A DNA stretch of 64,000 bases. Source: Burkholderiales bacterium. GTDB taxonomy: Bacteria > Pseudomonadota > Gammaproteobacteria > Burkholderiales > JAHFRG01. Both the position numbers and the translations under genes were made by a program. Positions 23,782 to 56,343 of this stretch are shown here, piece after piece; the stretch's first letter is position 1, and the number at the start of each line of letters is the position of its first letter. The notes under the pieces are model-generated. The model was not told the DNA's origin. It was given only the letters and a program-made list of their open reading frames with translations, and made no database searches. The stretch covers positions 30,430 through 94,429 of the forward strand of contig DATIXX010000035.1 in the NCBI GenBank assembly GCA_035518095.1, given 5' to 3'.

Positions 23782-23795
23782 TTGATCTAAGTCAA
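23782..23795. promoter_or_regulatory. FNR/Anr-type box (9/10)
   Basis: TTGATCTAAGTCAA, 82 nt upstream of the DUF2231 ATG. Confidence 0.6.
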
Positions 23796-23876
23796 TCATT
23801 TTTTTGCAAAGGTAATATTTAGATTGGGCCTGCGTGCTGCTCATATCCTAAGGGCGAAACAAATAAAGGTCGAACC

Positions 23877-24344
23877 ATGATTATCGATGTTGCGCGCGTC
23901 CATCCCATTCTCGTGCATTTTCCAATTGTTCTTTTCATTGTGGCCGTTGTGCTAGATATCTTTAACCTCAGCCACCGAGGTGATCTAAGTGAGGGTCAAT
24001 GCCTTCCGCTGCTCGCGTTGGGTGCTTTGTTTCTGGGCTCGTTGTTTGCTGTGGCCGCCGCGATGTTTGGCGATATTGCGCTGGACAAAGCGGTCGAGCT
24101 CGGTTTCCCCCGCGCTCCTTTGGAGCAGCACGAAGAATTCGGCCTCGCGACGATGTGGATTTTTATCGGTCTTACAGCCGTTAGGGCCGTGGCTTGGTGG
24201 CGCCGTTTTTCGTTGAACGGCTGGCCGAGCTGGGTCTTGTGTGGTCTTGGAGTAGCTGGCGTCGCGGTTCTTATTACCGCAGCGTACTTTGGCGGTGAAC
24301 TCGTATACAAGATCGGCGTCAATGTTGCGCCAGTTAAGCCGTGA
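23877..24344 (+). CDS. DUF2231-like integral membrane protein
   Basis: 155 aa with four TM helices. The N-terminus HPILVHFPIVLF is typical of that family. Confidence 0.6.
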   Translation: MIIDVARVHPILVHFPIVLFIVAVVLDIFNLSHRGDLSEGQCLPLLALGALFLGSLFAVAAAMFGDIALDKAVELGFPRAPLEQHEEFGLATMWIFIGLTAVRAVAWWRRFSLNGWPSWVLCGLGVAGVAVLITAAYFGGELVYKIGVNVAPVKP

Positions 24345-24720
24345 CTGCAAGGCATATGAAGCCGAGAATTCACGCATAGAAAGAAATCATCATCGCGGTA
24401 CCGCTACTGGTTGCCGGCTGGTTATTCGCAGGTTTATTTTATTTGATCGACAACCCTGCATTTGAAGCATGGACCGGTTCGGGGCACTATTTTACCTACG
24501 AAAGTTTAGCAGCTATCGTTCTGGTCCCATATTGTGTCGTATCCGTGGTTCGACTGCTCAGGTTCGTTTGGACCCGCATTTAATGGAAGGTGCCAAGCCG
24601 GGGCCTGGATCACGGTTGGCGTACGGGTCGATTTTTAATCACCTTTGTTGATAGCAAATAGATTTCAGTTATGTCGAGAGCTGTCGCGGCCGCAGCTCTA
24701 AAACTGCGATCGTCCTCGAA

Positions 24721-24825
24721 CGCACTGGCTACGCTAACCGGTTGATACGCCCATTCCCGAGACAATACGTTGTATCGAGTGTCCTGCCCTCACGGATTCA
24801 TCGCGGAAGTTAAAAAATCTTCTAA
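24721..24825 (+). pseudogene. relic of a PAP2 gene 3' end (degenerate copy of 23352..23458)
   Basis: Roughly 75% nucleotide identity by eye over about 105 nt, including ACGCTAACCGG, GCCCATTCC, GACAAT, GTCCTGCC-TCACGGATT and the terminal AAAAAATC..TAA. It has an in-frame TGA and a 1-nt indel, and no upstream remainder of the gene. Confidence 0.55.
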
Positions 24826-24887
24826 GCACGTCTGCCGCGAAATGATTTCCTAAACCAAATACTACCGGCGGTGGGAGCCTGCACCGC

Positions 24888-25655
24888 TTAGAATCCAATG
24901 CTCAACCCGCCGATTAGCTGGAAGCTATCCAGATCTGTGGTTGCTGTTCCATTCTCTGCGGTGCTCACCTGTGCTCGACCGCTATTAAATTTTGTCTCTG
25001 CGAACAATCCGACGTGCCGTAACACCCAGTATTGCACCCCGCCCAACACCTGATAACCAAATCCGGATTCCCTGTAAATTTGGTGGTTTTCCATATTGTC
25101 GACAGTATTTTCCGGGTGCAGGACGTAATAAGTCGGCCCGACACCGAAATACGGCTGCAGGCGGCCGTTGGGGTAAGCAGCACTGGCGAAATTCCCCGTC
25201 CAGCGGTAGATAAAGTCGAGTGCAATGGTATTCACGCCGTGGGTAATCTGGAACTGCTGCACGTACGTGTTCATGGGCACCGATTGATTGACCGGCACGC
25301 CTTTGATGGTGCCTGAAACCTGCACCACTTGGCCGGTTTGTCCGTAAACCTTATTGTGGGTGTAATCCAAGCCGAAGCCCCAGTTTGGCCAGCGTTCAAA
25401 AAAATAATTGATTCTAGCCCCGTAATAGGGCGGTGCGCTGAAAGGCTTGCTGTCCCAACTTACGTCGTGGAACGTGGCATTGGTGCCCACGGCGGGCTGT
25501 TGCAGGTGAATGTCGCTATTGAGGGTCCAAGACGAACCGCCATACACGGATAGTGTGGTTTCGGCCACAGCCACCCCGCCCCGCATGACGAGCAGCAAGG
25601 CCATAACTGCAAGCAACAAGCTTTGCAAAGATTTCAACATGCTTTGCCAGCTCAA
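24888..25655 (-). CDS. outer-membrane beta-barrel protein (family unresolved)
   Basis: 255 aa with a signal peptide. Alternating aromatic/Gly strands and a C-terminal ...GGLSIGF. Lies 56 nt downstream of mgtA on the same strand. Confidence 0.6.
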   Translation of the reverse strand: MSWQSMLKSLQSLLLAVMALLLVMRGGVAVAETTLSVYGGSSWTLNSDIHLQQPAVGTNATFHDVSWDSKPFSAPPYYGARINYFFERWPNWGFGLDYTHNKVYGQTGQVVQVSGTIKGVPVNQSVPMNTYVQQFQITHGVNTIALDFIYRWTGNFASAAYPNGRLQPYFGVGPTYYVLHPENTVDNMENHQIYRESGFGYQVLGGVQYWVLRHVGLFAETKFNSGRAQVSTAENGTATTDLDSFQLIGGLSIGF

Positions 25656-25711
25656 CTGAGATGCCGCTCAGGCTTTTAAAAATTGGCCCAATTCGCGGAA
25701 TCTGTTTTAAC

Positions 25712-28324
25712 TTAGATTAAACCAGCGTTCTTTTGGTTCGGAACTAAACGTAAATAAAAGAATCTTTTTACCCATTGCACCAGCAACAGATAGGCAGCCA
25801 CCATACCCCCCAATATCAAAAAGAACCAACCGGGAAGCTGGACAAAGCCAAAATAAGCGCCTATTGGGATGAAAGGGAGCACAGCGGCCAAAACAACAAC
25901 TGTAATCGAGCTCGCCGCCAGTAACGGGTGCGGGCGATTGGCGAAGGGACTTGCGCGCGTGCGGATCACGAAAATGACCAGGACCTGTGTCGCCAGGGAT
26001 TCGACAAACCAACCTGTCTGAAACAACGCCATGTCCGCGCGCATGATTTCCAGCAGCACGTAAAAGGTGAGAAAGTCAAACAGTGAGCTCACCGCGCCTA
26101 CGACCACCATGAAATTTCTGATGAATTTGGTATCCCAGTGGCGCGGCTTTTCGACTGCCTCGGCATCGACGCTATCCAGCGGAATCGCCACTTCCGAAAT
26201 ATCGTAAAGTATATTGTTAAGCAGTATCTGCGTCGGCAGCATCGGCAGGAAAGGCAGGAATAAGCTCGCTCCCGCCATGCTGAACATGTTGCCGAAATTT
26301 GAGCTCGTGCCCATCATGATGTACTTCATGATATTGGCGAATGTCCTGCGCCCTTCCTCGACACCGTCGTGCAATACGTTCAGATCGCGCTTTAGGAGGA
26401 TCATGTCGGCCGCATCCTTGGCCACATCCACGGCCGAGCTCACGGATAACCCGACATCGGCTGAATGCAGCGGCGGCGCGTCATTAATGCCATCGCCAAG
26501 ATAGCCCACAACATGGCCGCGCGCTCTCAAGGCCTGGATGATGCGGCTTTTTTCTCCAGGTGTCACCCGGCAAAAAAGATTCACGTATTCCACCGCTGCC
26601 TGCAGCGCGCTGTCGTCCATTGCAGCGATCTGCCCGCCCATCAACACTTCCGTTACCTTGATTCCAAGTTGCACGCACAGATGCTTTGTAACCTGCTCGT
26701 TGTCGCCAGTTATGATCTTGAGTTGCACGCGGCTTTGCGCCAGAGCTGCAAGTGCCGCGGCAGCGCTTTTTTTGGGCGGATCATAAAACGCAACAAAACC
26801 GGCGAAAACCAGTTGGCTTTCATCGTCACGTGTGGCACTTTCCCGATCGCGTGCAATCTCGCGCCAGGCGACAGCAACCGCTTTCAAGCCTTCTCCGCCA
26901 AGCGCGCCATATCGTGTTTGTATCGATTCAAGTGTGGCGGCATCAAGCTCGCGGATTGATCCTGCGCTTTCCTCATAGCGGGTCGACGTACGCATAACAT
27001 CTTCAGGAGCGCCTTTGACAACCAGGACCCGGCGCTCGCCGTTATCCAGCAAAACCGATACTCTGCGGCGCTCAAAGTCAAATGGAACTTCGTCAATCTT
27101 TTTCCACGTCGTCGTGTCAATATGCTGATGCTCCAGAATGGCGATGTCGAGCGGGTTCTTCAGCCCGCTCGCAAAATAGCTCGTCAAATAGGCGAGCTGC
27201 AGCGCCCTCGTACTTTCCTGGCCCATGGCGTCGAGGTGTTGCGCGACCCGGATGCGCGCTTCAGTGAGCGTGCCGGTCTTGTCGGTGCACAGAACATCCA
27301 TGCTGCCGAGGTTCTGGATCGACGCCAAACGTTTCACGATCACCTTTTTGTCCGCCATGCGGATCGCACCGCGGGAAAGCGTAACCGTCACCACCATGGG
27401 CAATAATTCCGGTGTAAGGCCGACGGCGAGTGCTATCGCGAACAGCAAGGACTCCAGCAATGGTCGGTGAAACAGCGCATTGACCAACAGCACAAATAAA
27501 ACCAGAAAAAAGGTAAGTCGCATGATCATCAGCCCGAAACGCCGCGTTCCAAGCTCAAAATCGGTGGGCGCTCTTCTGCGTCCGACATACTCGGCAATTT
27601 GCCCGATCGCGGTAGTACTGCCAGTTTTGCAAACCAGCATCTTCGCCGTGCCGCTGGTTACGGCGGTCCCCATAAAAAGCGCGTTTCCGGCACTCAGCAA
27701 ATCCGCATCAGCAGGAAGAGTGTCGAGCGGCCGTTTTTCGACCGGATAAGGTTCGCCGGTAAGTATCGACTGATTGACAAACAAATCTCGCGACTCGACG
27801 ACGCGCCCGTCCGCAGGGACTAGATTCCCTGCCGCCACCAGAACGACGTCGCCGGGCACGAGATGCTGTACTGGGACGGCGCGCGGGGTTGCATCGCGCA
27901 AAACCGTTGCATGTACTGCAACCATATCCCGCAGTCGCTCCGCTGCCCGCTCCGCGCGGTATTCCTGAATGAAATCCAGAGTAACGCTGAGAATGACTAT
28001 AATATTGATGATGGCGAAACCGGCAATTTCCTGGGTGAGCAACGAAACGCTGCTCGCCACCAGCAGGATAATAACCAGCGGGTTCTTGAAACGCGTCAGG
28101 AACTGAATAACGAGCGATCGCTTGGGGATGTCCTGAAACGAATTGGGCCCTGAAATGCGCAGTCGGCGGCGAGCTTCCTTGCCCGAAAGACCCTGGCGGC
28201 TCGCATCGAGTACAGTCAAACATTCGCTTAGCGGCTTGCGCCACCACGCGTCATCAACCGTGGTTGTAAGTCCTGAACTGCGGCTTCGCTGCCCGGATGC
28301 TGCAAAGAATCGGCGCCTGCTCAC
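25712..28324 (-). CDS. mgtA: magnesium-translocating P-type ATPase
   Basis: 870 aa. Contains LFVNQSILTGEPYPVEK, CTDKTGTLT and GDGINDAPPLHSADVGLSV. Collinear by eye with enterobacterial MgtA. Confidence 0.88.
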   Translation of the reverse strand: MSRRRFFAASGQRSRSSGLTTTVDDAWWRKPLSECLTVLDASRQGLSGKEARRRLRISGPNSFQDIPKRSLVIQFLTRFKNPLVIILLVASSVSLLTQEIAGFAIINIIVILSVTLDFIQEYRAERAAERLRDMVAVHATVLRDATPRAVPVQHLVPGDVVLVAAGNLVPADGRVVESRDLFVNQSILTGEPYPVEKRPLDTLPADADLLSAGNALFMGTAVTSGTAKMLVCKTGSTTAIGQIAEYVGRRRAPTDFELGTRRFGLMIMRLTFFLVLFVLLVNALFHRPLLESLLFAIALAVGLTPELLPMVVTVTLSRGAIRMADKKVIVKRLASIQNLGSMDVLCTDKTGTLTEARIRVAQHLDAMGQESTRALQLAYLTSYFASGLKNPLDIAILEHQHIDTTTWKKIDEVPFDFERRRVSVLLDNGERRVLVVKGAPEDVMRTSTRYEESAGSIRELDAATLESIQTRYGALGGEGLKAVAVAWREIARDRESATRDDESQLVFAGFVAFYDPPKKSAAAALAALAQSRVQLKIITGDNEQVTKHLCVQLGIKVTEVLMGGQIAAMDDSALQAAVEYVNLFCRVTPGEKSRIIQALRARGHVVGYLGDGINDAPPLHSADVGLSVSSAVDVAKDAADMILLKRDLNVLHDGVEEGRRTFANIMKYIMMGTSSNFGNMFSMAGASLFLPFLPMLPTQILLNNILYDISEVAIPLDSVDAEAVEKPRHWDTKFIRNFMVVVGAVSSLFDFLTFYVLLEIMRADMALFQTGWFVESLATQVLVIFVIRTRASPFANRPHPLLAASSITVVVLAAVLPFIPIGAYFGFVQLPGWFFLILGGMVAAYLLLVQWVKRFFYLRLVPNQKNAGLI

Positions 28325-28558
28325 GTTGCCGCTTACTCGTGCGGTATATTTCGCGACATCTTAACTCTCCACCGTTTCGCGATTTGAGGACTTACTTTTT
28401 TACCTATATCAAGAACGGTGAAGACCCGATAAAATATCTTTTTCCGATTCTCCCAGGTTTTCCCCGGAACGTTTATGATTTCGTGCGGGGGCGATAGCCC
28501 GCCCGGTAGATCCGCGTATTTCATTAAGTCAGGGTTAATGACTTAAGCAGCCAAACCT

Positions 28559-31237
28559 ATGAGACACTATCTCACCCCTTTGTTTGCGCCGCAAAGTGTG
28601 GCGCTAATCGGAGCCAGCGACAGGGCGCGATCCGTGGGCCGCCTGGTGTTCATGAACCTCCTACAAGGCAAATTCAAAGGCAAATTGTTTGCGGTAAATC
28701 CCGAGCACCAGGAAATACTCGGGCAGCGTTCGTATCCGACCATCCAGGCCATAGGCGAGCACGTGGAGCTTGCCGTGATTGTAACACCGCCTGCCGCGGT
28801 AGCACCCGTAATCGATTCCTGCGGGGCTGCCGGAGTGAAAGCCGCAGTCATCATTACCGCGGGATTTGCAGAAGCAGGTGAGGAAGGGCGGAAATTGCAA
28901 CGCGAGATGATGGAGCGTGCAAAAAAACACGGCATCCGCATTGTCGGCCCCAATTGCCTCGGGATCATCAGACCTTCAATCGGGCTTAATGCGACGTTCA
29001 GCAAGAGTGGAGCCAAGATCGGCAAACTTGCTCTGGTTTCGCAATCCGGGGCACTGTGTACTGCCATTCTCGACTGGGCCCAGTCCGCCGGGGTGGGATT
29101 TTCAACCGTGGTATCAATGGGCGACGCTGCAGATCTCGACTTCGGCGAGATTCTGGATTACCTGCTTGGCGACCTCGAGACAAACAGCATATTGCTCTAC
29201 ATTGAAGGCGTGCGCGATGCTCGGCGTTTCATGAGCGCGCTCCGGGCCGCAGCGCGCACCAAGCCGGTGGTGGTGATCAAAGCCGGAACGCATTTAAGCG
29301 GTTCGAAGGCCGCTGCCACCCATACCGGAGCGCTGGTCGGAAGCGACATGGTGTTTGATGCCGCGCTGCGTAGAGCGGGCACGGTGCGGGTCAAAACATA
29401 TGCTCAGCTGTTTGCTGCTGCAGAAATATTGGCATCCGGAAGCCGACCGAAAGGAAATCGTCTTGCTATTGTCACCAATGGCGGCGGTCCCGGTGTGCTC
29501 GCGGCAGATTGTGCCGCGGAAAACGGAATCGTAATGGCCAACCTGTCCCAGGAATCGATCGAGAAGCTCAATAGCGCGCTGCCGGCAAATTGGTCCCACA
29601 GGAACCCGGTAGATATTATCGGAGACGCGAATGTCGCGCGCTACGAAGCCGCAGTCAGCATCTGCCTGCAAGACCCCGAAGTTGACAGCGTGCTTGCCAT
29701 GCTGAGCCCGCAAGCCATGACCGATGCCGACTCCGTGGCACAAGGCGTGATCCGACTCTCCAAGCAAACGGACAAGACGCTTCTTGCCTGTTGGATGGGC
29801 GAGGAGGTGGTGCGATCCAGTCGCACAGCTTTTGTACGTGAAAATGTACCGACTTTTTCCACGCCGGAAAATGCGGTTGAAGCATTTGGCTATCTCGCCG
29901 CCCACCGTCGCAACCAAGAGCTGCTACTTCAAGCGCCCAGTCCGCTGTCGCAGCAACAGGCGCCGGATGTTGAGGGCGCGCAAACTCTGATCGACGGAGT
30001 GCTGGCGCAAAAGAGGAAGGTTCTCAATGAAGCCGAGGCCAAGGCCCTGCTCGCCGCGTTCCGTATTCCCGTGGCGGAAACGCTGATTGCGCGCTCCCCT
30101 GCCGATGCCCTGGTGCTTGCCGAACAAATCGGTTTCCCGGTGGCTGCGAAAATCTATTCGCCGGATATAGTTCACAAGACCGACGTCGGCGGAGTCCGAC
30201 TGCACATCATCAACGGCAGGGACCTGCTGGCTGCCTATCAGGACCTTATTGCCCAGGTCAGCAAGCTTCGCCCGCAAGCCCGCATCGAGGGCGTTGCGAT
30301 CGAACCGATGTTAAGCAAACCAAACGCCCGGGAAGTAATGATCGGGGTCAGCACCGATGCGGTTTTCGGGCCGGTAATCAGCTTTGGTGCCGGGGGCATC
30401 AAAGTGGAAATCGAACAGGACCAGTCGATCGCGCTGCCCCCTCTCAATCATTACATTATCGATAATCTCGTCAGCCGCACCCGGATCGCAAAGATGCTCG
30501 GGAAATTCCGGAATCTGCCCGAGGTCAACCGGGTTGCTCTGGAAAATGTGTTATTGCGTGTTTCTGAAATGGTCTGCGAGCTACCGGGCCTCAAGGAAAT
30601 GGATATCAATCCGCTGATCGTTGATGAGACAGGTGCGATAGTCGCGGATGCAAGAGTCGTGGTAGACCATCCGCTGCGAACCAAGGGCGGGCGGTATTCC
30701 CATATGGCCATTCATCCCTACCCGTCCTATCTCAAGAAGGAATGGTTTTTGCCCGATGCAACGTGTATCACCATCCGGCCCATACGCCCCGAAGACGCGG
30801 AGATCGAGCAGCAGTTTGTGCGCGGACTGTCATCTGAGGCGAGATACTTCCGGTTTTTCAACCCGATTCGCGAATTATCACCCGAGTTCCTGGCGCGTCT
30901 GACACAGGTTGACTACGACAGGGAAATGGCGCTGATTGCCACCGTTGCAACAGTCGGCGGAGAAACTGAAATTGGCGTGGCACGCTATAGCATCAACCCG
31001 GACGGCAGTACTTGTGAATTTGCCGTCGTCGTCGCCGACGATTGGCAGCGAAAAGGCATAGGTGCAAGGCTTGTCTCCGAACTTGCGGATTGCATTCGCG
31101 ACAAAGGCATCAAGCTGATTGAAGGTTGGGTTCTTAAACAAAATATTGGAATGCTGCAGCTGGCAAAAGAGATGGGCTTCGACATAGCCACAAGTTCCGA
31201 TGATCCGAAACTGATGTATGTAAGCAAGCAGCTTTAG
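28559..31237 (+). CDS. Pat/YfiQ-type protein acetyltransferase (ADP-forming acyl-CoA synthetase-like domains + C-terminal GNAT)
   Basis: 892 aa. CoA-binding N-terminus (SVALIGASDR...), ligase-CoA and ATP-grasp regions, and a C-terminal GNAT (WQRKGIGARLV). Confidence 0.85.
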   Translation: MRHYLTPLFAPQSVALIGASDRARSVGRLVFMNLLQGKFKGKLFAVNPEHQEILGQRSYPTIQAIGEHVELAVIVTPPAAVAPVIDSCGAAGVKAAVIITAGFAEAGEEGRKLQREMMERAKKHGIRIVGPNCLGIIRPSIGLNATFSKSGAKIGKLALVSQSGALCTAILDWAQSAGVGFSTVVSMGDAADLDFGEILDYLLGDLETNSILLYIEGVRDARRFMSALRAAARTKPVVVIKAGTHLSGSKAAATHTGALVGSDMVFDAALRRAGTVRVKTYAQLFAAAEILASGSRPKGNRLAIVTNGGGPGVLAADCAAENGIVMANLSQESIEKLNSALPANWSHRNPVDIIGDANVARYEAAVSICLQDPEVDSVLAMLSPQAMTDADSVAQGVIRLSKQTDKTLLACWMGEEVVRSSRTAFVRENVPTFSTPENAVEAFGYLAAHRRNQELLLQAPSPLSQQQAPDVEGAQTLIDGVLAQKRKVLNEAEAKALLAAFRIPVAETLIARSPADALVLAEQIGFPVAAKIYSPDIVHKTDVGGVRLHIINGRDLLAAYQDLIAQVSKLRPQARIEGVAIEPMLSKPNAREVMIGVSTDAVFGPVISFGAGGIKVEIEQDQSIALPPLNHYIIDNLVSRTRIAKMLGKFRNLPEVNRVALENVLLRVSEMVCELPGLKEMDINPLIVDETGAIVADARVVVDHPLRTKGGRYSHMAIHPYPSYLKKEWFLPDATCITIRPIRPEDAEIEQQFVRGLSSEARYFRFFNPIRELSPEFLARLTQVDYDREMALIATVATVGGETEIGVARYSINPDGSTCEFAVVVADDWQRKGIGARLVSELADCIRDKGIKLIEGWVLKQNIGMLQLAKEMGFDIATSSDDPKLMYVSKQL

Positions 31238-32654: not shown

Positions 32655-32777
32655 TTCATTTCCGCAAGTCGGTACAATCAATTCTGGCCAATATGCCGGA
32701 AATTCGAATTTAGCAAATTGACCCACGTCAAGTTTGGCGCAATCACTTGAAGTAACCCGCAATTGGTCTGCTGCCAG

Positions 32778-32791: not shown

Positions 32792-32959
32792 CCTGACGCT
32801 CTTCAGGTTGAGCTATGTTTAATCAATTCTCATTTGCACGGCTGCTGAGACGGGACCGGTAAGCTAATTCCCAACGTGAATTCGGGCCCAGGCCTATAGA
32901 TTGCAAAAACAGTCTAGCAACGTGTACGCTTTATCCAAGTCACTTGACTTGCAAATTCA

Positions 32960-35347: not shown

Positions 35348-35358
35348 CACGCATCACC

Positions 35359-39363: not shown

Positions 39364-39381
39364 ATATGAACAGGCGGTTTT

Positions 39382-45338: not shown

Positions 45339-45773
45339 ATGGCTGGCAATATCACACGTTACGATCCGCTTTCAATGATGGATACCGATCTTGATGACTG
45401 GTTCAAGGGTTTTTTTCTGCGCCCAATTAGTCTGCAGGGGCAGCCGTCGCTGCAGATAAAGATGGATGTTAGCGAGAATGACAAGGCCTACAAAGTACGC
45501 GCCGAAATTCCGGGCGTGAAGAAGGAAGACATCGCTGTCAACATCGACGAAAAACAGGTCGCGATCAGCGCGGAAGTAAAAGAGGAAAAGGAAAAGAAAG
45601 ACGGCGAAAAGGTGGTTCACAAGGAGCGCTATTACGGCAACGTGTTCCGCAGTTTCACGCTTCCCCAGGATGTCGACGAAAAGGCCGCACAGGCTCACTA
45701 TGAGGACGGCGTGCTGGAACTCACCCTGCCCAAAAGACCGGCAAGCAAAGCAAAACAGCTGACTATTTCCTGA
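45339..45773 (+). CDS. Hsp20/alpha-crystallin small heat-shock protein
   Basis: Start trimmed to the ATG at 45339, which follows GAGGAG. Contains the alpha-crystallin core (DVSENDKAYKVRAEIPGVKKEDIAV...FTLPQDVD...GVLELTLPK). Confidence 0.9.
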   Translation: MAGNITRYDPLSMMDTDLDDWFKGFFLRPISLQGQPSLQIKMDVSENDKAYKVRAEIPGVKKEDIAVNIDEKQVAISAEVKEEKEKKDGEKVVHKERYYGNVFRSFTLPQDVDEKAAQAHYEDGVLELTLPKRPASKAKQLTIS

Positions 45774-46043: not shown

Positions 46044-46057
46044 TTGATCGGTATCAG
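46044..46057. promoter_or_regulatory. FNR-like box (9/10)
   Basis: TTGATCGGTATCAG, 64 nt upstream of the adh ATG. Confidence 0.45.
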
Positions 46058-47140: not shown

Positions 47141-47145
47141 AGAAA

Positions 47146-49704: not shown

Positions 49705-49723
49705 TATCTGCAGAGGCGCGCGC

Positions 49724-50761: not shown

Positions 50762-50806
50762 CATGCCTGTTGCGTTTGCGACCGCATTGCGCCACAGCAT
50801 GACTGA

Positions 50807-51829
50807 TCACGATTGAAGCAGGTCTACAATCGATCCACCAGTGTGTATTCTCTCGATGGCATCCGCAAAGAGCTTGGCCGAATCCAAAATAGTCAGTTTT
50901 TCCTGAACCAACTGAACTTCCAGCCACAGCGGCGGCACGGTGTCGGTGATTACGATTGCATCAATCGGGGCAGCGCGCAGAATCGCGTTGGCATCCTGGG
51001 AAAATAGTCCGTGCGTCGCAGCTGCGTAGACTTGTTTTGCGCCGGCCAAACGGCACGCGGTGGCCGCCCGCGCAATCGTCGTGCCGCTGCTGATGAGGTC
51101 GTCAATGATCACCACCGAGCTGTTTTTCACTTCCGCGACCAGCGTTTCGCCGCTCACCGTGCCCAGCGCCCGGTATTTCTCCATGAAACCGCCGGCGACA
51201 TTGCGTGCCAGCCGGCGCATTAACGCCAAGCGGAATCTTTCGGCCCGTTTCACGCCGCCGACATCCGGCGAAAGCACCACAACTTCGTCCGCGGCCAACA
51301 GCTTCGCAAAGTGCTCGACAAACAGTTGTGCGGCTTCCAAATGATCGGTGCGGCAGCGGAACGCGTTCTGGTAGGCGGAAATGTTATGAACATCCATGGT
51401 CAAGACGCGATCTGCGCCGACGGCTTCAAACATGCCGGCAACGTAGCGTGTCGTTACCGGATCGCGCGGCTGAGACTTCCAGTCTTTGCGAGCGTAACAA
51501 AGGTACGGTACTACTGCGGTTACACGTGACGCGGACGCGTCTTTGACGGCGCCAAGAAAAAACAATAACCGGCAAAGCTTGTCATTAACGCTTTGCTGGC
51601 GGTCTCGGTAGAGCGACTGAATGACGAACACGTCCTTGCCGCGAACGTTTGCCAGCGCTCGCGATTTATGCTCGCCGTCCACAAATTCCCGTTCCTCGTG
51701 CGCGGTGAGGGAAATACCGAGATGCCGGCTGATCGATGCGCCAAAATCATGGCTCGCATTAAGCGCAAACAAGCAAGCGCTATCCAGGCCCATGTCCGAT
51801 CCCTGTTTCACATAAAGGCATAAGGCCAA
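50807..51829 (-). CDS. ribose-phosphate pyrophosphokinase-like phosphoribosyltransferase
   Basis: About 330 aa. Prs-like N-terminal half ([28 protein letters not shown]) and a PRTase P-loop ([13 protein letters not shown]). An alternative start, MGLDS, is at 51793. Confidence 0.75.
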
Positions 51830-51945
51830 CCCCCTCTACGCCTCAAATTACAATTTCCTGACCGCGACCCCGGGTCGATGTTCTTCACTGCCTGTTTTTC
51901 GTTAACCTTCGCAACTTCGTTACTATTCTTGATTCGCTGCAAAAG

Positions 51946-52440
51946 CTAACGGGCACCGCCTTTCGCAGATGGCGATGCGCCTTTGACGAGGCTTGCCTCG
52001 CGGTGAACCAGTACCGGGACGGGGCTGTGGGTGATCACCTTGACAGTTTCGCTGCCAAGCACGACAGCGGAAACGCCTTTTTTGCCGTGCGACGCCATGT
52101 AAATAAGATCGCAGCCCTTATTCCTCGCGGTTTTGATGATGTCCGCGTAAGGCGAATCGCCCGCAATGCAAAAGCATTGGCTTCGAACGCCAGCTCTTGC
52201 AGCCGTTTGTTCAATCTGCGCGACATATTGCTTGGCATGCTCATTAAACATGGCTTTCAGCCGCGCGCGTGGTTTCGAGGCACCGTGCGCCCAGCCTTTC
52301 AAAAGCGTAGCTCGAAAACTTGGCGTTACATGCAAACCGGTCACACGAGCACCGATCGCCTTTGCAAATTCAATTCCGCTTTCCACCGCCCTCTCGGATA
52401 ATGGCGAGCCGTCTGTCGGCAATAAAATGTGCTTGTACAT
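51946..52440 (-). CDS. universal stress protein (UspA family)
   Basis: Start trimmed to MYKHILLPTDGS, the ATG at 52440 that follows GAGG. Contains ASHGKKGVSAVVLGSETVKVI. Confidence 0.85.
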   Translation of the reverse strand: MYKHILLPTDGSPLSERAVESGIEFAKAIGARVTGLHVTPSFRATLLKGWAHGASKPRARLKAMFNEHAKQYVAQIEQTAARAGVRSQCFCIAGDSPYADIIKTARNKGCDLIYMASHGKKGVSAVVLGSETVKVITHSPVPVLVHREASLVKGASPSAKGGAR

Positions 52441-52516
52441 GACAACCTCGTTTCGATTTACGCCTTTCGGCACGGCATTTCAACGCTTGCGTGCCTTGCT
52501 CAGCCTAGAGGTTGGG

Positions 52517-52684
52517 CTATCGTCCGCGGGCGTGTTCCAACCTGATACCAACCAGCTCAAGCGCGATTGCGACAGCGAACAGCACTAAGCCCCACCATAC
52601 CTCCGGCGCGAGCCACATCAGCACCGCGCCTAACACCAACAATGCCGCAGCTAGCGCGCGTCTTTTTTTCCGGTTCCTGATCAT
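52517..52684 (-). CDS. hypothetical 55-aa membrane peptide
   Basis: Below the ORF-track cutoff. Translation is MIRNRKKRRALAAALLVLGAVLMWLAPEVWWGLVLFAVAIALELVGIRLEHARGR: a basic N-terminus followed by two hydrophobic helices. It sits in the operon between the Zn-ribbon gene and usp. Confidence 0.35.
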   Translation of the reverse strand: MIRNRKKRRALAAALLVLGAVLMWLAPEVWWGLVLFAVAIALELVGIRLEHARGR

Positions 52685-52778
52685 GTGCAGTCCGTCGGCG
52701 GTGTTAAGTCAGCGAAGAGTCGGTTTGGACACAGGTATCTCCTTTTGCGCTGATAAGCCACCGGCTCCAGGTATAAAT

Positions 52779-53276
52779 TTACCCCGTCCAGTTGACGCGC
52801 ACCGTGTACTCGTCCGGGCTGTACTTCACATCAAGGTCGCCGCGGTATGCACGGCGCACCGCTTCGCCGATACGGCGCGGAAGATGCACGTCCGTGGTTG
52901 TAATTACGATCTTATCCGGCTGGTCTTCTATTTCCATAATCCGGTGCAGCGGGTGGTCCGATTTTTCCTTAGTTTCCTCGTGCCGAACAAGGCGCATCAG
53001 TTCCTCGCGGCGACTGGTCATCGCTTCGCCACTCAGGGTGACGTAACCCGCGGGGAAGTGATCGCGCGTTCTGTGGCATGCTGGACAGACATAATCCCGC
53101 GCGTCAGTGGGACGTGGCAATCTCTGCCAGCGGCCTTGATGGAACACGATACCGCAGCTGGGGCACGCCGACGGCTCTGGCGGCTTGGCGCGCGCCTGAT
53201 ACGGGTCGTGCACGACTTCCTCAATCTGGCGATCGAGATGATGGTGGCGATGGGCTCTAGGTTCTTTTCTGCTCAT
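52779..53276 (-). CDS. conserved hypothetical zinc-ribbon protein
   Basis: 165 aa with paired CxxC motifs (CPSCG...CPACH). Preferred over the antisense 263-aa ORF (52512..53303), which is Arg/Ala-rich and of low complexity. Confidence 0.55.
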   Translation of the reverse strand: MSRKEPRAHRHHHLDRQIEEVVHDPYQARAKPPEPSACPSCGIVFHQGRWQRLPRPTDARDYVCPACHRTRDHFPAGYVTLSGEAMTSRREELMRLVRHEETKEKSDHPLHRIMEIEDQPDKIVITTTDVHLPRRIGEAVRRAYRGDLDVKYSPDEYTVRVNWTG

Positions 53277-53294
53277 GGCAACTCTTTTTGCCGG

Positions 53295-53660
53295 CTATTT
53301 TGAATCGGTCTCGCTTCCGCTGCGTTGCGGTTCTCTATGGTGTTTCACCGCGCCGCGCGTGCGCCGACTGCTGTCTTCCAACTGGCGGCACGCAGCGTCA
53401 AAAGCGTCGCGCAACGCGACATAGACATCCTCGTGGGCATCGCGATTGACAGCTATCGTGTCGCCGGGCACATTTAAATCAATCCTCACATTGAAGCGAT
53501 TGCCTTGATGTTTATGCTTGTGAGGCTGTTCCACTGTGACGTGGCAGCGCAGCACCTGCGGATGAAATGAATCCAGCTTCTGGGCTTTTTCTCGGATATG
53601 CGTCTCGAGCGCATCCGAGTGACTGATCCCGTGAAAGACGATTTGCAATGGTGTTTGCAC
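53295..53660 (-). CDS. hpf: ribosome hibernation factor (HPF/RaiA family)
   Basis: Contains QIVFHGISHSDALETHIREKAQKLDSFHP...VTVEQPHKHKHQGNRFNVRIDLNVPG. The likely start is the GTG at 53660, just after the CBS stop. The ORF-track ATG at 53720 would overlap the CBS gene by 50 nt. Confidence 0.78.
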   Translation of the reverse strand: MQTPLQIVFHGISHSDALETHIREKAQKLDSFHPQVLRCHVTVEQPHKHKHQGNRFNVRIDLNVPGDTIAVNRDAHEDVYVALRDAFDAACRQLEDSSRRTRGAVKHHREPQRSGSETDSK

Positions 53661-53670
53661 GGTCCGTAAC

Positions 53671-54129
53671 TCAGACACTGATTCGTCTCGTTTCTTGCTC
53701 CCGTTTGTGCTCGCGCGCAACCATGGTCGCGAGCGCGGACAGTTCCTCAGCGAGCAGAATCAGGAGATCATCGGCCGCAACGACGCCGACAAGCGCGCCT
53801 GCGTCGTCGGTTACCGGCAGGCGCCGTACGCCTTTCAGCCGCATGAGCTCCGCTGTTTCCGCCACTCCGGCATCCTCGCGCACTGCCAAAAGTTCTTGGC
53901 CCATCACGTCCCCCACCTGAATCGCATCCGGGTTAAGCCCAAGCGCCACGACCGCGACCACGATATCCCGATCCGTCAGAATTCCCGCCGGAATACGTTT
54001 CCCGTTGGGTTCGTCTACAATCACCAGGCTTCCAATGTGCGACTCGCGCATTAAACTTGCGGCTGCCTTTATAGTGGTGTCCCTGCGCGCGAACACCACC
54101 TCCCGGCTGCAGATTTCTCCAATTGCCAT
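53671..54129 (-). CDS. CBS-domain pair protein
   Basis: 152 aa with two CBS repeats (ICSREVVFA...GSLVIVD; VGDVMGQELLAV...RRLPVTDD). Confidence 0.85.
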   Translation of the reverse strand: MAIGEICSREVVFARRDTTIKAAASLMRESHIGSLVIVDEPNGKRIPAGILTDRDIVVAVVALGLNPDAIQVGDVMGQELLAVREDAGVAETAELMRLKGVRRLPVTDDAGALVGVVAADDLLILLAEELSALATMVAREHKREQETRRISV

Positions 54130-54183
54130 GATATCTCCCTCTAAAAACCAAATTCATTATGCTCGCACCCGCAGCATGCCGCT

Positions 54184-54197
54184 TTGATCTAAATCAA
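54184..54197. promoter_or_regulatory. FNR/Anr box, perfect consensus
   Basis: TTGATCTAAATCAA, the same 14-mer as at 32778. It lies 55 nt upstream of the CBS gene ATG. Confidence 0.8.
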
Positions 54198-54260
54198 AAC
54201 GGTATAAGCATCATGAGGTAGCGGGTGGACATTACGCAACAAGCGGTCCTCGGTAGCTTT

Positions 54261-55514
54261 TTATTCTCTCACAATATTGACGAGTATCAAGCCCAATGCC
54301 GTCGCGATCGACAAGGTATAAAAGACAGCGGGCCAGTTACCGGTTAATTGTAAAAGCCCGCCGATCACAATCCCTTGCAACCCAGCCCCAATATAGTTAA
54401 ACAGGTCGACGACGCCAACCGCAGTCGCGGCCATCCTGCGCCCGCCGAAATCGCATGCTGCAGCAAACAAATCACCGATCGCGCCCAGCGCGAAAAAGCC
54501 GCCGAGCACCAGCAGCGCGAAAGAGCCGTGGAGACCGATCTCCCTGATGCCAAAATGCGCCATCGCAAGCATAATCGCGATGAAACACCCCATGTAGATA
54601 TTTAGCACCTGAAAGCGCTTGGCACGGAAGAATCTGTCGGCTATCCATCCCGCGGCAAGCGGCCCCAACATTATTCCAAGAGGCAGCGCTACAGTCGCAG
54701 CGGGTATATTCGAGAGGGGGACGCCCGATGTTTCGGCGTAATAAAGGGGAATCCAGGTGAGAAGCCCGTAGCGTCCCACGTGCATCAGCATGGATGCCGC
54801 CGCATACAGCATAAATTTCCAGTTCGAGAAGAGAATTTTCCACGCCTTGACTCCGCGAGTTTCCTCAGGCGTGTAATGCTCCGCTTTGGCGGAGATCGAA
54901 TCGGTCAGCGTCTCTTGGTAGGGAGGAAAATTGGCGTCCTGGGGCCTGCTGCGCACGACCAAAAACATGACTATCGTTATTGGCAACGTGAATAACAAAA
55001 CCGGATACGCAAAAGCAGCGCGCCAGCCGTAATGTGTTACGAAATAACCGGTAATAAGCCAAACCACCAGCGTTGAAACTCCGGTCGACGCCGCGTAGAG
55101 TCCCGTTGCAAAGCCGCGCTTGGATTTCGGATACCACTGACTGATCATGCCGTTGGTCGATGCGTAAGCCTGCCCCTGAATGAAACCGTTCACAAAAAGC
55201 GCGCCCAAGATGAAATTAAGATTGGATAAGCCGGCGATCACGATATTCATGACGGTCGTCCCGATTCCGCCGATGGTATCCATGATGCGAGCGCCGTATT
55301 TGTCGGCCAACCGTCCGCTGAGAAACACGCCCAATGCATAGGCCCAAAGGATCGTGCTTGCGCCGAGTCCGGCGTTGAACTTGGTGATATTCAGGTCGCT
55401 GATGATCCAGGGGATGCAAAAGCTCCAGTCAAGGCGTCCCAGATAATAAAAGCTGTACCATGCCGCGGCCATGACCGTAATACGCCAGAAGCGGTAGCGG
55501 TCATAGGCAAGCAT
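54261..55514 (-). CDS. MFS transporter (organophosphate:Pi antiporter/GlpT-like by eye)
   Basis: 12 TM helices. Starts MLAYDRYRFWRITVMAAAWYSFYYLGR, the ATG at 55514. The ORF track extends to 55682, adding a non-membrane, Arg-rich leader. Confidence 0.75.
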   Translation of the reverse strand: MLAYDRYRFWRITVMAAAWYSFYYLGRLDWSFCIPWIISDLNITKFNAGLGASTILWAYALGVFLSGRLADKYGARIMDTIGGIGTTVMNIVIAGLSNLNFILGALFVNGFIQGQAYASTNGMISQWYPKSKRGFATGLYAASTGVSTLVVWLITGYFVTHYGWRAAFAYPVLLFTLPITIVMFLVVRSRPQDANFPPYQETLTDSISAKAEHYTPEETRGVKAWKILFSNWKFMLYAAASMLMHVGRYGLLTWIPLYYAETSGVPLSNIPAATVALPLGIMLGPLAAGWIADRFFRAKRFQVLNIYMGCFIAIMLAMAHFGIREIGLHGSFALLVLGGFFALGAIGDLFAAACDFGGRRMAATAVGVVDLFNYIGAGLQGIVIGGLLQLTGNWPAVFYTLSIATALGLILVNIVRE

Positions 55515-55899
55515 TTGCTGCTCGCTCAGTCCAAGCCCCTCGAATTCAGGAAAGCGCGAGCGATTTGTGGGCTCCAATCGCCTTCTCCTTAAGGATTTAA
55601 GCGTGCGAGCGCGCAGCTTGATTTCAATACTGGATAATTTGCATGACGCGGAATCATTCGATCGCCTACATTCTGGAATCAATATCCGGGTTGCGGTGTG
55701 AGCAGTTTTTCCGCAAGGGTATGTGCGAGCGTGTGTTTACTTTTACGTCACTCGTTTAGCGTTGCACCGAGTCGATCCGTGTTTTGCTGTCAACCAGATT
55801 AATTGTAATTCCCACCTTAGTTGCAAAAGATGTATCCGCCCCGCTGTCGACTTAGAGGAATTGCAGTTACCTCGATGATGGCGTGAAGCACCGGCTGAA

Positions 55900-56343
55900 C
55901 TATCCCCGGACAATCAGGATAGGCGCATTGGCGATGCGAATAAATTCCTCCGCCACGCTTCCCATCAAAAGATACTCGAAACCGACTCTCCCATGCGTTC
56001 CCATAACCACCAGGTCCGCGTGCCACTTAGCTGCCTCTTCTCCAAGCACGGCCGCGACGCGGCCTTTTTTTGCATCGAGCAATCCTGTTTCCGGTTCCAC
56101 GCCAGACTTGCGGGCCGTATCGGCAGCCTTGTCCAGCAAGGTTTGGCCCAAATGGTGCAGTTTTTTTGAAAGTTCTTCGACATCGATAATGCCTTCCAGG
56201 TCATCATCGCTTGGCAGGCCGACATTCACCACGTGAACAATGCGCAATTTTGACTTCATTTCGGAAGCAAGCTTGATCGACTCTGCTAAAGCGTGTGCCG
56301 CCGTGCTGCTGCTGTCGAAAGGCAGTAGTATTCTTTTGTACAT
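55900..56343 (-). CDS. universal stress protein (UspA family)
   Basis: 147 aa. Contains MYKRILLPFDSS and GTHGRVGFEYLLMGSVAEEFI. Confidence 0.85.
   Translation of the reverse strand: MYKRILLPFDSSSTAAHALAESIKLASEMKSKLRIVHVVNVGLPSDDDLEGIIDVEELSKKLHHLGQTLLDKAADTARKSGVEPETGLLDAKKGRVAAVLGEEAAKWHADLVVMGTHGRVGFEYLLMGSVAEEFIRIANAPILIVRG

Follow-up and report, generated by a model that had tools for sequence, protein, structure and literature searches.

An FNR-boxed gene cluster, probably of the lxa low-oxygen type, in an uncultured soil betaproteobacterium

Genes of the cluster and its flanks

The 64-kb stretch of DNA analysed here (the window) carries between positions 23782 and 56343 a gene cluster, the island, interspersed with FNR-type boxes (Table 1). 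Protein family assignments were computed directly, as were the site statistics, site conservation and promoter geometry reported below. Matches to Pfam and NCBIfam bear out the inventory of a preliminary description of the locus, except that there are four USPs and not five. The start of HemN was corrected to 32654, which differs from the longest-ORF start, and the BCAM0308-family protein was assigned to a minus-strand 165-aa reading frame, which is 80% identical in the related locus L003 when compared to 52% for the overlapping plus-strand frame.

On the left flank, the kinase/regulator pair is syntenic with the cluster in the metagenome relative L057, and the FixJ-like regulator scores 243.7 against the FixJ model NF006900 (cut-off 255). 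On the right, the boundary first proposed appears too narrow; the boxed cluster seems to extend past 56343 and to take in an N-type ATPase operon and, outside the window, glgP. On the same metagenome contig (L143) this operon goes on with the ATPase_gene1 marker; 9/10 boxes precede the first gene of the operon, at a distance of 226 nt, and glgP, at 186 nt, both boxes lying outside the window.

Table 1. Genes, probable operons and sites in the window. Box scores are matches to TTGAT-N4-ATCAA; hexamer distances run from the box centre.
Feature	Position	Strand	Remarks
Histidine kinase (FixL-type kinase core) and FixJ-like response regulator (REC, GerE)	20474-22607	+	left flank
FNR box TTGATCTAAGTCAA (9/10)	23782-23795		DUF2231 gene 88 nt downstream; -10-like TAGATT begins at 32 nt
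DUF2231 membrane protein	23877-24344	+	Pfam PF09990, E 5e-14
Mg-ATPase/outer-membrane pair, probable operon	24888-28324	-	intergenic gap 56 nt
Outer-membrane beta-barrel protein	24888-25655	-	OMP_b-brl
MgtA-type Mg P-type ATPase	25712-28324	-	TIGR01524, 895 bits (cut-off 611)
FNR box TTTACCTATATCAA (8/10)	28399-28412		between the Mg-ATPase and Pat genes, which diverge
Pat-type protein (ADP-forming acyl-CoA synthetase-like and GNAT acetyltransferase domains)	28559-31237	+	Pfam ATP-grasp_5, Succ_CoA_lig, CoA_binding, Acetyltransf_1; NCBIfam
HemN, oxygen-independent coproporphyrinogen III oxidase	31275-32654	-	TIGR00538, 573 bits (cut-off 325)
FNR-like box TTGACCCACGTCAA (8/10), hemN-proximal	32718-32731		hemN ATG 70 nt downstream; CATATT at exactly 30 nt, hemN side
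Perfect FNR box TTGATCTAAATCAA	32778-32791		faces Cu-ATPase operon, 60 bp from hemN-proximal box; TATGTT at 30 nt, plus side
Cu-ATPase/beta-CASP pair, probable operon	32960-36750	+	two genes
Cu-type P1B ATPase (YHS, HMBD)	32960-35347	+	TIGR01511, 600 bits (cut-off 397)
Beta-CASP metallo-beta-lactamase-fold RNase-like protein	35359-36750	+	Beta-Casp, RMMBL
Dihaem cytochrome c	36821-37441	-	Pfam Cytochrom_C
HiPIP	37512-37844	-	Pfam HIPIP
USP1	38429-38857	+	Pfam; no box
USP2-dodecin-globin, probable operon	38926-40076	-	intergenic gaps 50 and 18 nt
Single-domain globin	38926-39363	-	Pfam Globin
Dodecin	39382-39585	-	Pfam Dodecin
USP2	39636-40076	-	Pfam Usp
Perfect FNR box TTGATCCAAATCAA	40184-40197		precedes USP2 operon; GATAAT at 31 nt, USP2 side
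Hybrid histidine kinase (PAS, HisKA, HATPase, REC)	40333-42069	+	Pfam; FixL/DosP-like PAS
Single-domain receiver	42084-42500	-	overlaps fnr
fnr	42497-43315	-	4-nt overlap with receiver gene
Direct repeats TGTTACA N3 TGTTTCA ... GTTAT ... GTTTACA	43466-43515	-	conserved; between fnr and OmpR-type gene
OmpR/PhoB-family response regulator	43537-44247	+	Pfam Response_reg, Trans_reg_C; NCBIfam; divergent from fnr
PAS-GGDEF diguanylate cyclase	44244-45176	-	Pfam
FNR box TTGATCCAGGTCAA (9/10)	45203-45216		Hsp20 downstream; TATATT at 30 nt, Hsp20 side
Hsp20/alpha-crystallin	45270-45773	+	Pfam
FNR box TTGATCGGTATCAG (9/10)	46044-46057		ADH operon downstream; CAAAAT at 32 nt
ADH operon (probable)	46121-50761	+	three genes; intergenic gaps 5 and 19 nt
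Zn-ADH	46121-47140	+	first gene
Type II P-type ATPase	47146-49704	+	second gene
345-aa protein	49724-50761	+	weak, sub-threshold APH-family match
PRPP-synthetase-like protein	50807-51829	-	Pfam; TIGR01251
Weak FNR-like site TTGATTCGCTGCAA (8/10)	51929-51942		precedes PRPP-synthetase-like gene
USP3	51946-52473	-	no box
CBS-HPF-BCAM0308, probable operon	52779-54129	-	three genes, Pfam
BCAM0308-family NMD3-like zinc-ribbon protein	52779-53276	-	NF040826 lxa_BCAM0308, 198 bits (cut-off 100)
HPF	53295 to about 53660	-	Pfam
CBS-pair protein	53671-54129	-	Pfam
Perfect FNR box TTGATCTAAATCAA	54184-54197		precedes CBS operon; CATAAT at 30 nt
MFS transporter, sugar-phosphate type	54261-55682	-	no box upstream
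USP4	55900-56343	-	no box upstream
GH63-like hydrolase, glycogen debranching enzyme, 3' genes of N-type ATPase operon	56573-64000	-	right flank, probable extension of cluster; Pfam

FNR-type boxes in the intergenic DNA

The box TTGAT-N4-ATCAA is common to FNR, Anr, FixK and Dnr paralogues. In the whole window it occurs four times without mismatch, when compared to 0.07 per shuffled window, and 11 times with up to one mismatch (2.1 in shuffles). FNR-type sites show strong enrichment in the cluster's intergenic DNA and are restricted to it; its 4468 bp hold 3 perfect sites, 6 with up to one mismatch and 9 with up to two; the shuffle means are 0.006, 0.146 and 2.05, and none of 2000 shuffles reached the observed counts. 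Intergenic DNA elsewhere in the window (4347 bp) holds 0, 1 and 1 such sites, and the 28.3 kb of island coding DNA hold 0, 2 and 7.

All sites quoted in the preliminary description were found, namely three perfect intergenic ones (that given at 40185 begins at 40184), with an identical 14-mer at 32778 and 54184, the 9/10 sites 23782, 45203 and 46044, and two 8/10 ones at 28399 and 51929. Its list omitted the 32718 box, a 9/10 site at 54277 in the 3'-terminal part of the MFS gene, and a fourth perfect site at 14894. The latter lies in frame within pqqB and was rejected as a regulatory box, since the L-I-H-I-N codons of PqqB account for it and no regulatory explanation is needed.

Start codons lie 60-176 nt downstream of the box centres. 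In eight promoters, those of Hsp20, CBS, USP2, the Cu-ATPase gene, hemN, Pat, ADH and DUF2231, the first base of a -10-like hexamer is 30-32 nt away from the centre of the box, and at most sites the layout of box and hexamer is the geometry of a predicted class II (FNR-activated) promoter. The -10 elements of the 51929 and 23782 sites are weak or offset, and a search near 51929 found no good hexamer.

The boxes stand out as phylogenetic footprints in the syntenic loci L001-L006 (FNR 74-78% identical) and L057 (Pat protein 84% identical). Conservation in orthologous loci had been named beforehand as a point on which the proposal could fail; in these alignments the boxes are conserved, with the exception of the 32778 box in L057. 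The Hsp20 box and its TATAAT-like element are unchanged in five loci (alignment A1), as is TTTGATTTGGATCAA at the USP2 box amid divergent flanks (alignment A2). The 54184 box and CATAAT are kept in L003 across a divergent spacer, and the 46044 box aligns with TTTGATCTGGGTCAA in L004 and L006. In L057 the 28399 box is kept as TTGACCTATATCAA, with a TATCTT hexamer retained 30 nt from the box centre in the Pat/Mg-ATPase intergene, and the 32718 box aligns with TTGATCTAGGTCAA; the position of the perfect 32778 box is degenerate there, which points to site turnover. USP1 is unboxed here, but its L005 orthologue carries a perfect box, and in the distant locus L008 a 9/10 box at 17696 lies just upstream of a PRPP-synthetase homologue (tblastn match). 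The reading of the palindromes as artefacts of chance or composition that regulate nothing, for which the pqqB site speaks, can be regarded as effectively refuted by the shuffles, by boxes that stay invariant while their flanks diverge and by the steady spacing from boxes to -10 hexamers.

The earlier description of the cluster as a single FNR-wired unit finds no support: only about 10 of the 19 inferred transcription units are boxed. No box was found upstream of USP1, USP3 and USP4 (three of the four USPs), the MFS transporter gene, HiPIP-cytochrome c (nearest best site with 3 mismatches) or fnr.

The island FNR and its regulatory neighbours

The island encodes a bona fide FNR, which can be aligned along its entire length with that of Aliivibrio fischeri (5cvr, E 6e-53). 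As anticipated from the initial reading, four cysteines (C21, C24, C30 and C123) match the cluster ligands in this alignment, and the recognition helix has the E--SR pattern (ETVSR aligned with ETISR in A. fischeri). The protein falls 4.6 bits short of the NCBIfam Fnr subfamily NF008365 (223.4, cut-off 228) and is 50-58% identical to hemN-linked housekeeping FNRs. The fnr/receiver module is syntenic in L001-L006. Upstream of fnr, the repeat blocks are unchanged in 7 loci (alignment A4); the paired repeat occurs only once in the window and is possibly a response-regulator site of the OmpR type. The PAS domain of the hybrid kinase matches the haem domain of Rhizobium meliloti FixL (1d06, E 4.5e-14) and DosP, and the His of its PERFRDGH motif occupies what we take to be the proximal-His position, by hand alignment with the FixL sequence.

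The main reader of these boxes could be another CRP/FNR protein encoded elsewhere (a housekeeping FNR/Anr, FixK or Dnr), with the cluster FNR specialised or subordinate as in hierarchical multi-Fnr systems, a possibility that we consider rather doubtful. Such a hierarchy is reported for Herbaspirillum seropedicae, whose three Fnr proteins interact (PMC5934665). In Burkholderia cenocepacia anr1 and anr2, the regulators with a demonstrated part in anoxic survival, are distinct from BCAM0287, which the lxa locus itself encodes, anr2 being the BCAM0049 orthologue, outside that locus (PMC9104464; PMC3721108). The island fnr, moreover, is unboxed. However, every feature for reading TTGAT is present in the cluster FNR, which is kept in synteny with boxed promoters in six related genomes; given its likeness to hemN-linked housekeeping FNRs, it could be the main FNR in its own right.

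Proposed response and comparison with known systems

We read the locus, with a probability of about 0.8 on the sequence evidence, as an lxa-type low-oxygen response cluster of an uncultured soil betaproteobacterium, for which we infer binding, oxygen dependence, a regulatory cascade and a survival phenotype. When oxygen falls, the cluster FNR, possibly together with other genomic FNR paralogues, would retain its [4Fe-4S] cluster and dimerise, and the dimer would bind TTGAT-N4-ATCAA boxes whose centres precede the transcription start sites by about 41.5 bp. About ten promoters would be activated, with products in six groups: stress and chaperone proteins (USP2, Hsp20); ribosome hibernation (CBS-pair protein, HPF, NMD3-like BCAM0308 protein); oxygen-independent haem synthesis (HemN); the oxygen-binding globin with dodecin; ion homeostasis (Mg-, Cu- and type II P-type ATPases); and Zn-ADH and the PRPP-synthetase-like protein (redox, nucleotide salvage) with the beta-CASP RNase-like protein and the Pat-type acetyltransferase. 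Transcription of fnr would probably be set not by FNR but by a two-component layer, formed by the hybrid kinase with its FixL-like PAS domain, the OmpR-type regulator, with its candidate repeat site upstream of fnr, and the co-transcribed single-domain receiver. The receiver could serve as a feedback element like FixT, which is the precedent (PMC7078487).

Alternatively, and in our judgement with well below even odds, the cluster may be mainly a hot spot of micro-oxic respiration and adaptation grown around an ancestral hemN-fnr locus, rather than a system dedicated to dormancy or anoxic persistence. An adjoining hemN and fnr, in many cases with a Cu-ATPase at a distance of a few kb, is the common arrangement in more than 40 betaproteobacterial loci (L007-L052). 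L008 is intermediate in form: its hemN-fnr pair precedes Hsp20, HPF, CBS, APH-like and PRPP-synthetase-like genes, and the locus has seven boxes. HiPIP, cytochrome c, globin and Cu-ATPase fit low-oxygen respiration, but the respiratory HiPIP-cytochrome c pair is unboxed, while the most tightly boxed genes (HPF, BCAM0308 protein, CBS-pair protein, Hsp20, USPs) are in keeping with growth arrest, and in B. cenocepacia the counterpart promotes survival rather than growth (PMC3721108).

The lxa-type reading is the one we prefer. The B. cenocepacia lxa locus has an Anr/FNR-like motif at 17 intergenic points and its own Anr-like regulator adjoining a two-component system; it is induced at low oxygen, its deletion mutants survive anoxia less well, and its parallel with the DosR regulon has already been drawn (Sass et al. 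2013, PMC3721108), so that the arrangement can no longer be called only partly described, as it had been. Later work on that species showed that anoxic survival is lost altogether when two anr genes are deleted together (PMC9104464), and a review draws the Anr/Lxa/DosR parallel (PMC12071387). The resemblance to lxa proposed earlier is borne out by a Burkholderia stagnalis locus of lxa-like gene content, with 15 TTGAT-N4-ATCAA-type sites in 41 kb, adjacent kinase, regulator and FNR genes, and homologues of the island beta-CASP (58% identity), Hsp20 (50%), FNR (43%) and CBS (41%) proteins as well as USPs; the island also encodes an NCBIfam lxa_BCAM0308 equivalog. Since the island FNR is closer to hemN-linked FNRs than to the B. 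stagnalis lxa-like FNR, the cluster is not a simple lxa orthologue. It is a relative of the Burkholderia lxa locus, well supported as such and not new in kind.

FNR boxes and predicted promoters of the cluster

The preliminary description, made from the sequence alone, had pointed to a cluster of low-oxygen and stress genes (23782-56343) with intergenic FNR boxes of the form TTGAT-N4-ATCAA, an observation that is borne out by site counts against shuffled sequences and by the intergenic enrichment of the sites. For the whole window, shuffled sequences would give 0.07 perfect sites and 2.1 sites with one mismatch or none; the observed numbers are 4 and 11. Box sites concentrate in the intergenic DNA of the cluster. 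On the corrected gene map these 4468 bp hold 3 perfect sites, 6 with at most one mismatch and 9 with at most two (shuffle means 0.006, 0.146 and 2.05); the corresponding counts are 0, 1 and 1 for the 4347 bp of intergenic DNA in the rest of the window, and 0, 2 and 7 for the 28.3 kb of cluster coding DNA. The three perfect sites reported earlier are all present, the first and the third sharing one 14-mer, although the middle one starts at 40184 and not at 40185; sites matching nine (9/10) or eight of the ten fixed positions were likewise found as quoted. The fourth perfect site, which had been overlooked, lies inside pqqB and reads in frame as TTG ATC CAT ATC AAC (L-I-H-I-N). It was dropped as a regulatory site and is most likely a coding coincidence, since it consists of pqqB codons and has no -10 element.

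Two independent lines, conservation and geometry, argue that the predicted boxes are functional. When the Hsp20/GGDEF and USP2/kinase intergenic regions are aligned, 5 loci keep the boxes unchanged amid diverging flanks. Among related loci, the CBS box and its CATAAT hexamer are kept in L003, the ADH box in L004 and L006, and the Pat box with its TATCTT hexamer in L057. In the hemN/Cu-ATPase region the conserved L057 box pairs with the site at 32718 rather than with the perfect site at 32778; thus there are two boxes 60 bp apart, with some turnover. As to geometry, a -10-like hexamer, conserved in several cases, begins 30-32 nt from the box centre at 8 promoters: at 30 nt for Hsp20 (TATATT), CBS (CATAAT), hemN (CATATT), Cu-ATPase (TATGTT) and Pat (TATCTT), at 31 nt for USP2 (GATAAT), and at 32 nt for ADH (CAAAAT) and DUF2231 (TAGATT). 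At class II FNR-activated promoters the box is centred near -41.5 from the transcription start, and the spacing at these predicted promoters would fit that mode of activation. Two candidate targets were rejected. The box at 40184 was assigned to USP2 because its geometry is poor toward the hybrid kinase, and the box at 45203 to Hsp20 because its centre is only 33 nt from the start codon of the GGDEF gene.

The claim of a single FNR-wired unit goes too far, as a box is present in only about 10 of the 19 inferred transcription units of the cluster. Upstream of the USP1, USP3, USP4, MFS, HiPIP-cytochrome c, fnr and OmpR-regulator genes the best site has at least 3 mismatches; the USP1 orthologue in the syntenic locus L005 does carry a perfect box. 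A search for a second motif common to the box-less promoters (USP1, USP3, USP4, MFS, fnr and the left flank) returned nothing convincing.

Positions of sites and features in the window and in related contigs
Feature	Position	Observation
425-aa ORF	3357-4634 (-)	Gene-like codon bias, no Pfam match; also called as a gene on independent metagenome contigs
NarL/FixJ-type regulators	8633-9280; 21879-22607	
9/10 site TTGATGCATTTCAA	13697-13710	458-bp divergent region, TonB-like gene/pqq operon; no suitably placed -10 hexamer, outside the cluster context
Perfect site TTGATCCATATCAA	14894-14907	
Left-flank membrane PAS kinase and FixJ-like regulator	20474-22607	Directly left of the first box; synteny with the cluster in L057
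hemN	32654	Corrected start
Box TTGACCCACGTCAA	32718	
Perfect intergenic sites	32778; 40184; 54184	
Conserved block GTACGCTTTATCCAAGTCACTTGAC	32930-32960	Just upstream of the Cu-ATPase start; strongly conserved with L057; inverted repeat AAGTCA/TGACTT
Hybrid kinase	40333-42069	
Single-domain receiver	42084-42500	
Direct repeats	43466-43515	TGTTACA, TGTTTCA, GTTAT, GTTTACA
Convergent PRPP-synthetase-like (~340 aa) and 345-aa genes	49724-51829	345-aa member with at most a weak APH-family match
Same convergent pair, distant betaproteobacterial locus	L008:15552-17700	FNR boxes
Same-sized pair, alphaproteobacterial MAG	L140:9107-11235	No boxes; 345-aa member without Pfam match, likeness by size
Rejected 263-aa ORF	52512-53303 (+)	No family match
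165-aa zinc-ribbon protein	52779-53276 (-)	Directly downstream of HPF; two CxxC pairs
Last genes of the N-type ATPase operon in the window	61716-64000	
Probable rightward extension	56573-64000 and beyond	N-type ATPase, glgP, glycogen debranching enzyme, GH63-like hydrolase
9/10 boxes beyond the right end	L143:4517-4530; L143:1738-1751	About 4 and 7 kb out

The conserved block upstream of the Cu-ATPase gene could be a candidate site of another regulator, for example a metal sensor.

The cluster FNR and possible control of its gene

The cluster FNR aligns end to end with Aliivibrio fischeri FNR (5cvr, E 6e-53). Its residues C21, C24, C30 and C123 sit on the [4Fe-4S] ligand cysteines of 5cvr, three N-terminal and one central, and ETVSR of the recognition helix stands opposite ETISR, so that the E--SR motif reading TTGAT is present. 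The NCBIfam Fnr model NF008365 is matched over its full length, with 223.4 bits against a cut-off of 228. The exact protein sequence was matched only on metagenome-derived contigs; the nearest genomes are Burkholderiales/Betaproteobacteria MAGs with syntenic clusters (L001-L006) and FNRs 74-78% identical, while hemN-linked FNRs (L007-L052) are 50-58% identical.

The fnr gene overlaps the single-domain receiver gene by 4 nt, and the two form a translationally coupled operon convergent with the hybrid kinase gene. The divergent region between fnr and the OmpR-type regulator gene contains direct repeats that are conserved in 7 loci, the paired repeat occurring once in the window, and these constitute a candidate response-regulator site. 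Two-component control of fnr is suggested by the lack of an FNR box at this gene together with the conserved repeats upstream. The PAS domain of the hybrid kinase matches the haem-PAS of FixL (1d06, E 4.5e-14) and of DosP (E 1e-9). In a hand alignment to the FixL sequence, His presumably occupies the proximal-His position, and Leu presumably falls where the distal Arg220 of FixL would be. The receiver encoded with fnr is a stand-alone domain (Pfam Response_reg only) and by eye looks like the FixJ receiver. Joining these parts, we propose that kinase, regulator, FNR and receiver could form a cascade.

Gene content, boundaries and possible spread

The earlier gene inventory stands by Pfam and NCBIfam, except that there are four USPs (universal stress proteins) and not five. 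Besides these it comprises a DUF2231 membrane protein, an MgtA-type ATPase with an outer-membrane barrel protein, a Pat-type fusion of acyl-CoA-synthetase-like and GNAT domains, HemN, a Cu-type ATPase with a beta-CASP hydrolase, a HiPIP with a dihaem cytochrome c, one probable operon of USP2, dodecin and a single-domain globin, the hybrid kinase, the single-domain receiver, FNR, the OmpR-type regulator, a PAS-GGDEF protein, Hsp20, a PRPP-synthetase-like protein, an MFS transporter and a CBS-pair protein with HPF. There is also a Zn-ADH with a type II P-type ATPase and a 345-aa protein whose APH-family match is weak and below threshold. Scanning the window with Rfam and for tRNAs gave no RNA genes.

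One correction of the gene map concerns the region downstream of HPF, where a 263-aa plus-strand ORF was dropped as a gene because it has no family match and overlaps a conserved minus-strand ORF of 165 aa; compared with L003, the latter shows 80% identity and the plus-strand frame 52%. The 165-aa protein is an equivalog of NF040826, lxa_BCAM0308 (198 bits, cut-off 100), and many of its homologues carry a Pfam NMD3 match and the JGI name 'NMD protein affecting ribosome stability'. Its occurrence with HPF in one FNR-boxed operon suggests that this NMD3-like, BCAM0308-family protein may be an uncharacterised ribosome-hibernation partner of HPF.

The term 'island', in the sense of a mobile element, is not supported, since no integrase was seen in the window and the GC content shows no sharp break. 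The right boundary proposed earlier probably does not mark the end of the boxed region. The metagenome contig runs on past the right end of the window (L143). There, a 9/10 box (TTGATGCAGGTCAA) lies 226 nt upstream of the first gene of an N-type ATPase operon with the ATPase_gene1 marker, and TAATAT stands 29 nt from the centre of this box; another 9/10 box precedes glgP by 186 nt. The operon and glgP, along with the genes for the glycogen debranching enzyme and the GH63-like hydrolase, probably extend the cluster rightward. To the left, L141 (16.9 kb, overlapping the left end of the window and reaching about 10 kb beyond) contains zero box sites. In window-equivalent coordinates the boxed region probably begins at 23.8 kb and ends at roughly 70.8 kb, a length of about 47 kb. 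In the left flank, the kinase core is of the FixL type, matching engineered fusion kinases based on the FixL kinase module with E 1e-55, and the FixJ-like regulator reaches 243.7 bits (cut-off 255). In Burkholderia, the ATP synthase cluster of chromosome II is reportedly induced in hypoxia (PMC4187911); the structure paper on the N-type ATPase contains no oxygen-regulation data (PMC5376962).

Close homologues of the beta-CASP protein (at most 67% identity) occur on mobilizable plasmids, namely Acidovorax sp. T1 p1-T1 and Legionella plasmids. On p1-T1 the gene stands in an array with a heavy-metal ATPase, an MFS transporter, a thymidine-phosphorylase-family protein, a ribose-phosphate pyrophosphokinase, a gene annotated as xylulose 5-phosphate 3-epimerase and acetate kinase. 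Pat was dropped as a marker of the cluster, because 79 of 80 metagenome loci with this gene represent unrelated contexts and only L057 was informative.

FNR boxes are present in the cluster and in Burkholderia; near the same genes in Oryzomicrobium or in an alphaproteobacterial MAG we found none. Parts of the gene set appear to travel horizontally. We tentatively give about one chance in four to the reading that the cluster is one case of a portable, modular anoxia-survival kit, wired in each lineage to the local O2 sensor. Such a kit could contain the USPs, Hsp20, the CBS-pair protein, HPF, the NMD3-like BCAM0308 protein, the beta-CASP hydrolase, the PRPP-synthetase-like protein with its 345-aa partner, and the P-type ATPases. 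In the present lineage it would be fused to hemN-fnr, with the haem-PAS kinase and the Fe-S FNR in series and a FixT-like brake, and it would extend to glycogen breakdown and to an N-type ATPase burning ATP so that the membrane stays energised without respiration.

Comparison with known low-oxygen systems

The FixL-FixJ-FixK-FixT cascade of Alphaproteobacteria resembles the cluster in having a FixL-like PAS kinase and a CRP/FNR-family output regulator, and the left flank adds a FixL-type kinase core and a FixJ-like regulator. FixK is not known to carry the FNR Fe-S cysteines, whereas the putative output regulator of the cluster keeps them, and the regulator divergent from fnr is OmpR-type and not FixJ-type. 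The single-domain receiver encoded with fnr can be likened to FixT of Caulobacter, which inhibits FixL by feedback (PMC7078487), but lacks the 4-Cys motif of FixT since it has just two cysteines.

The mycobacterial DosR regulon shares cargo types with the cluster, namely USPs, alpha-crystallin, a CBS-pair protein and a cation P-type ATPase. By sequence, Rv2626c ranks in the top five PDB matches of the cluster CBS-pair protein (E 3e-12), and the DosR regulon also includes an HPF-like factor and phosphoribosyltransferase-type enzymes. However, regulator and operator are unrelated, as DosR is a NarL-type protein with its own palindrome and the cluster has FNR; only two NarL/FixJ-type regulators were seen in the window. 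The resemblance would be one of cargo only, an analogy and not membership.

The Anr regulon of Pseudomonas aeruginosa has the same box (TTGATNNNNATCAA) and the same [4Fe-4S] sensor class, and it includes hemN, the USPs PA3309 and PA4352, and alcohol dehydrogenases. Anr-dependent USPs are needed for anoxic survival in this species (PMC3721108, PMC12071387). In contrast to the physically clustered predicted targets described here, the Anr regulon is dispersed on the chromosome and includes denitrification and arginine fermentation; no anaerobic respiration genes were seen in the cluster.

The closest comparator is the lxa (low-oxygen-activated) locus of Burkholderia cenocepacia described by Sass et al. 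2013, 50 genes (BCAM0275a-BCAM0323) with an Anr/FNR-like motif at 17 intergenic points and with its own Anr-like regulator, BCAM0287, adjoining a regulator and a kinase (BCAM0287-0289) (PMC3721108). Its cargo includes six USPs, Hsp20, Zn-ADH, a metal-dependent RNase, a cation ATPase and a cytochrome c, and lxa is strongly induced at low O2, its deletion mutants showing lowered anoxic survival (PMC3721108); loss of both anr copies abolishes it (PMC9104464). Likewise, the cluster spans tens of kb with many intergenic Anr/FNR-type motifs (TGA-N6-TCA core), encodes its own Anr-like CRP/FNR regulator beside a response regulator and a kinase, and carries multiple USPs, Hsp20, Zn-ADH, a metallo-beta-lactamase-fold RNase, a cation ATPase, a cytochrome c and the BCAM0308-family marker protein. 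The lxa-like locus retrieved from B. stagnalis, a member of the cepacia complex, carries, over 41 kb, 15 sites that differ from the box at one position at most, the same motif density as the cluster, and has adjacent kinase, regulator and FNR genes; its homologues include beta-CASP (58%), Hsp20 (50%), FNR (43%) and CBS (41%) proteins, as well as USPs and an APH-like protein.

Orthology or synteny with BCAM0275a-BCAM0323 was not found, the homologues being 27-58% identical and gene order not being conserved. PHA synthase and reductase, acetate kinase and phosphotransacetylase, class II ribonucleotide reductase, ribokinase, phospholipid-binding proteins and nitroreductase are present in lxa but absent from the cluster, which in turn has HemN, Cu-ATPase, an MgtA-type ATPase, Pat, HiPIP, globin with dodecin, HPF, the PRPP-synthetase-like protein and PAS-GGDEF, and adjoins N-ATPase and glycogen-breakdown genes. 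The cluster FNR has its nearer relatives among hemN-linked FNRs, the lxa-type FNR of the B. stagnalis locus being more distant, and the hosts differ too, an uncultured soil lineage of about 55% GC compared with about 65% in that locus. In the intermediate arrangement of the distant betaproteobacterial locus L008, Hsp20, HPF, CBS, APH-like and PRPP-synthetase-like genes come after hemN-fnr, and there are seven boxes. Because order and cargo differ and the FNR is nearer to the hemN-linked proteins, we infer from these gene comparisons that the cluster is of the same kind as lxa, with families in common, and not an orthologous copy.

The preliminary description was right about this kind, yet it overstated the novelty, as lxa had been explicitly compared with the DosR regulon in its original report (PMC3721108) and a 2025 review again draws the Anr/Lxa/DosR parallel (PMC12071387). 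The cluster does not reveal a new kind of system. It provides a comparative basis for sorting core from accessory genes, the candidate core being USPs, Hsp20, the CBS-HPF-BCAM0308 operon, the beta-CASP protein and P-type ATPases, and it offers testable leads in the link between ribosome hibernation and the NMD3-like protein, two-component control of fnr and FNR control of the N-type ATPase. Altogether, low-oxygen clusters of the lxa type, wired to FNR, are not confined to the Burkholderia cepacia complex and occur, with different cargo, in uncultured soil and groundwater Betaproteobacteria as well.
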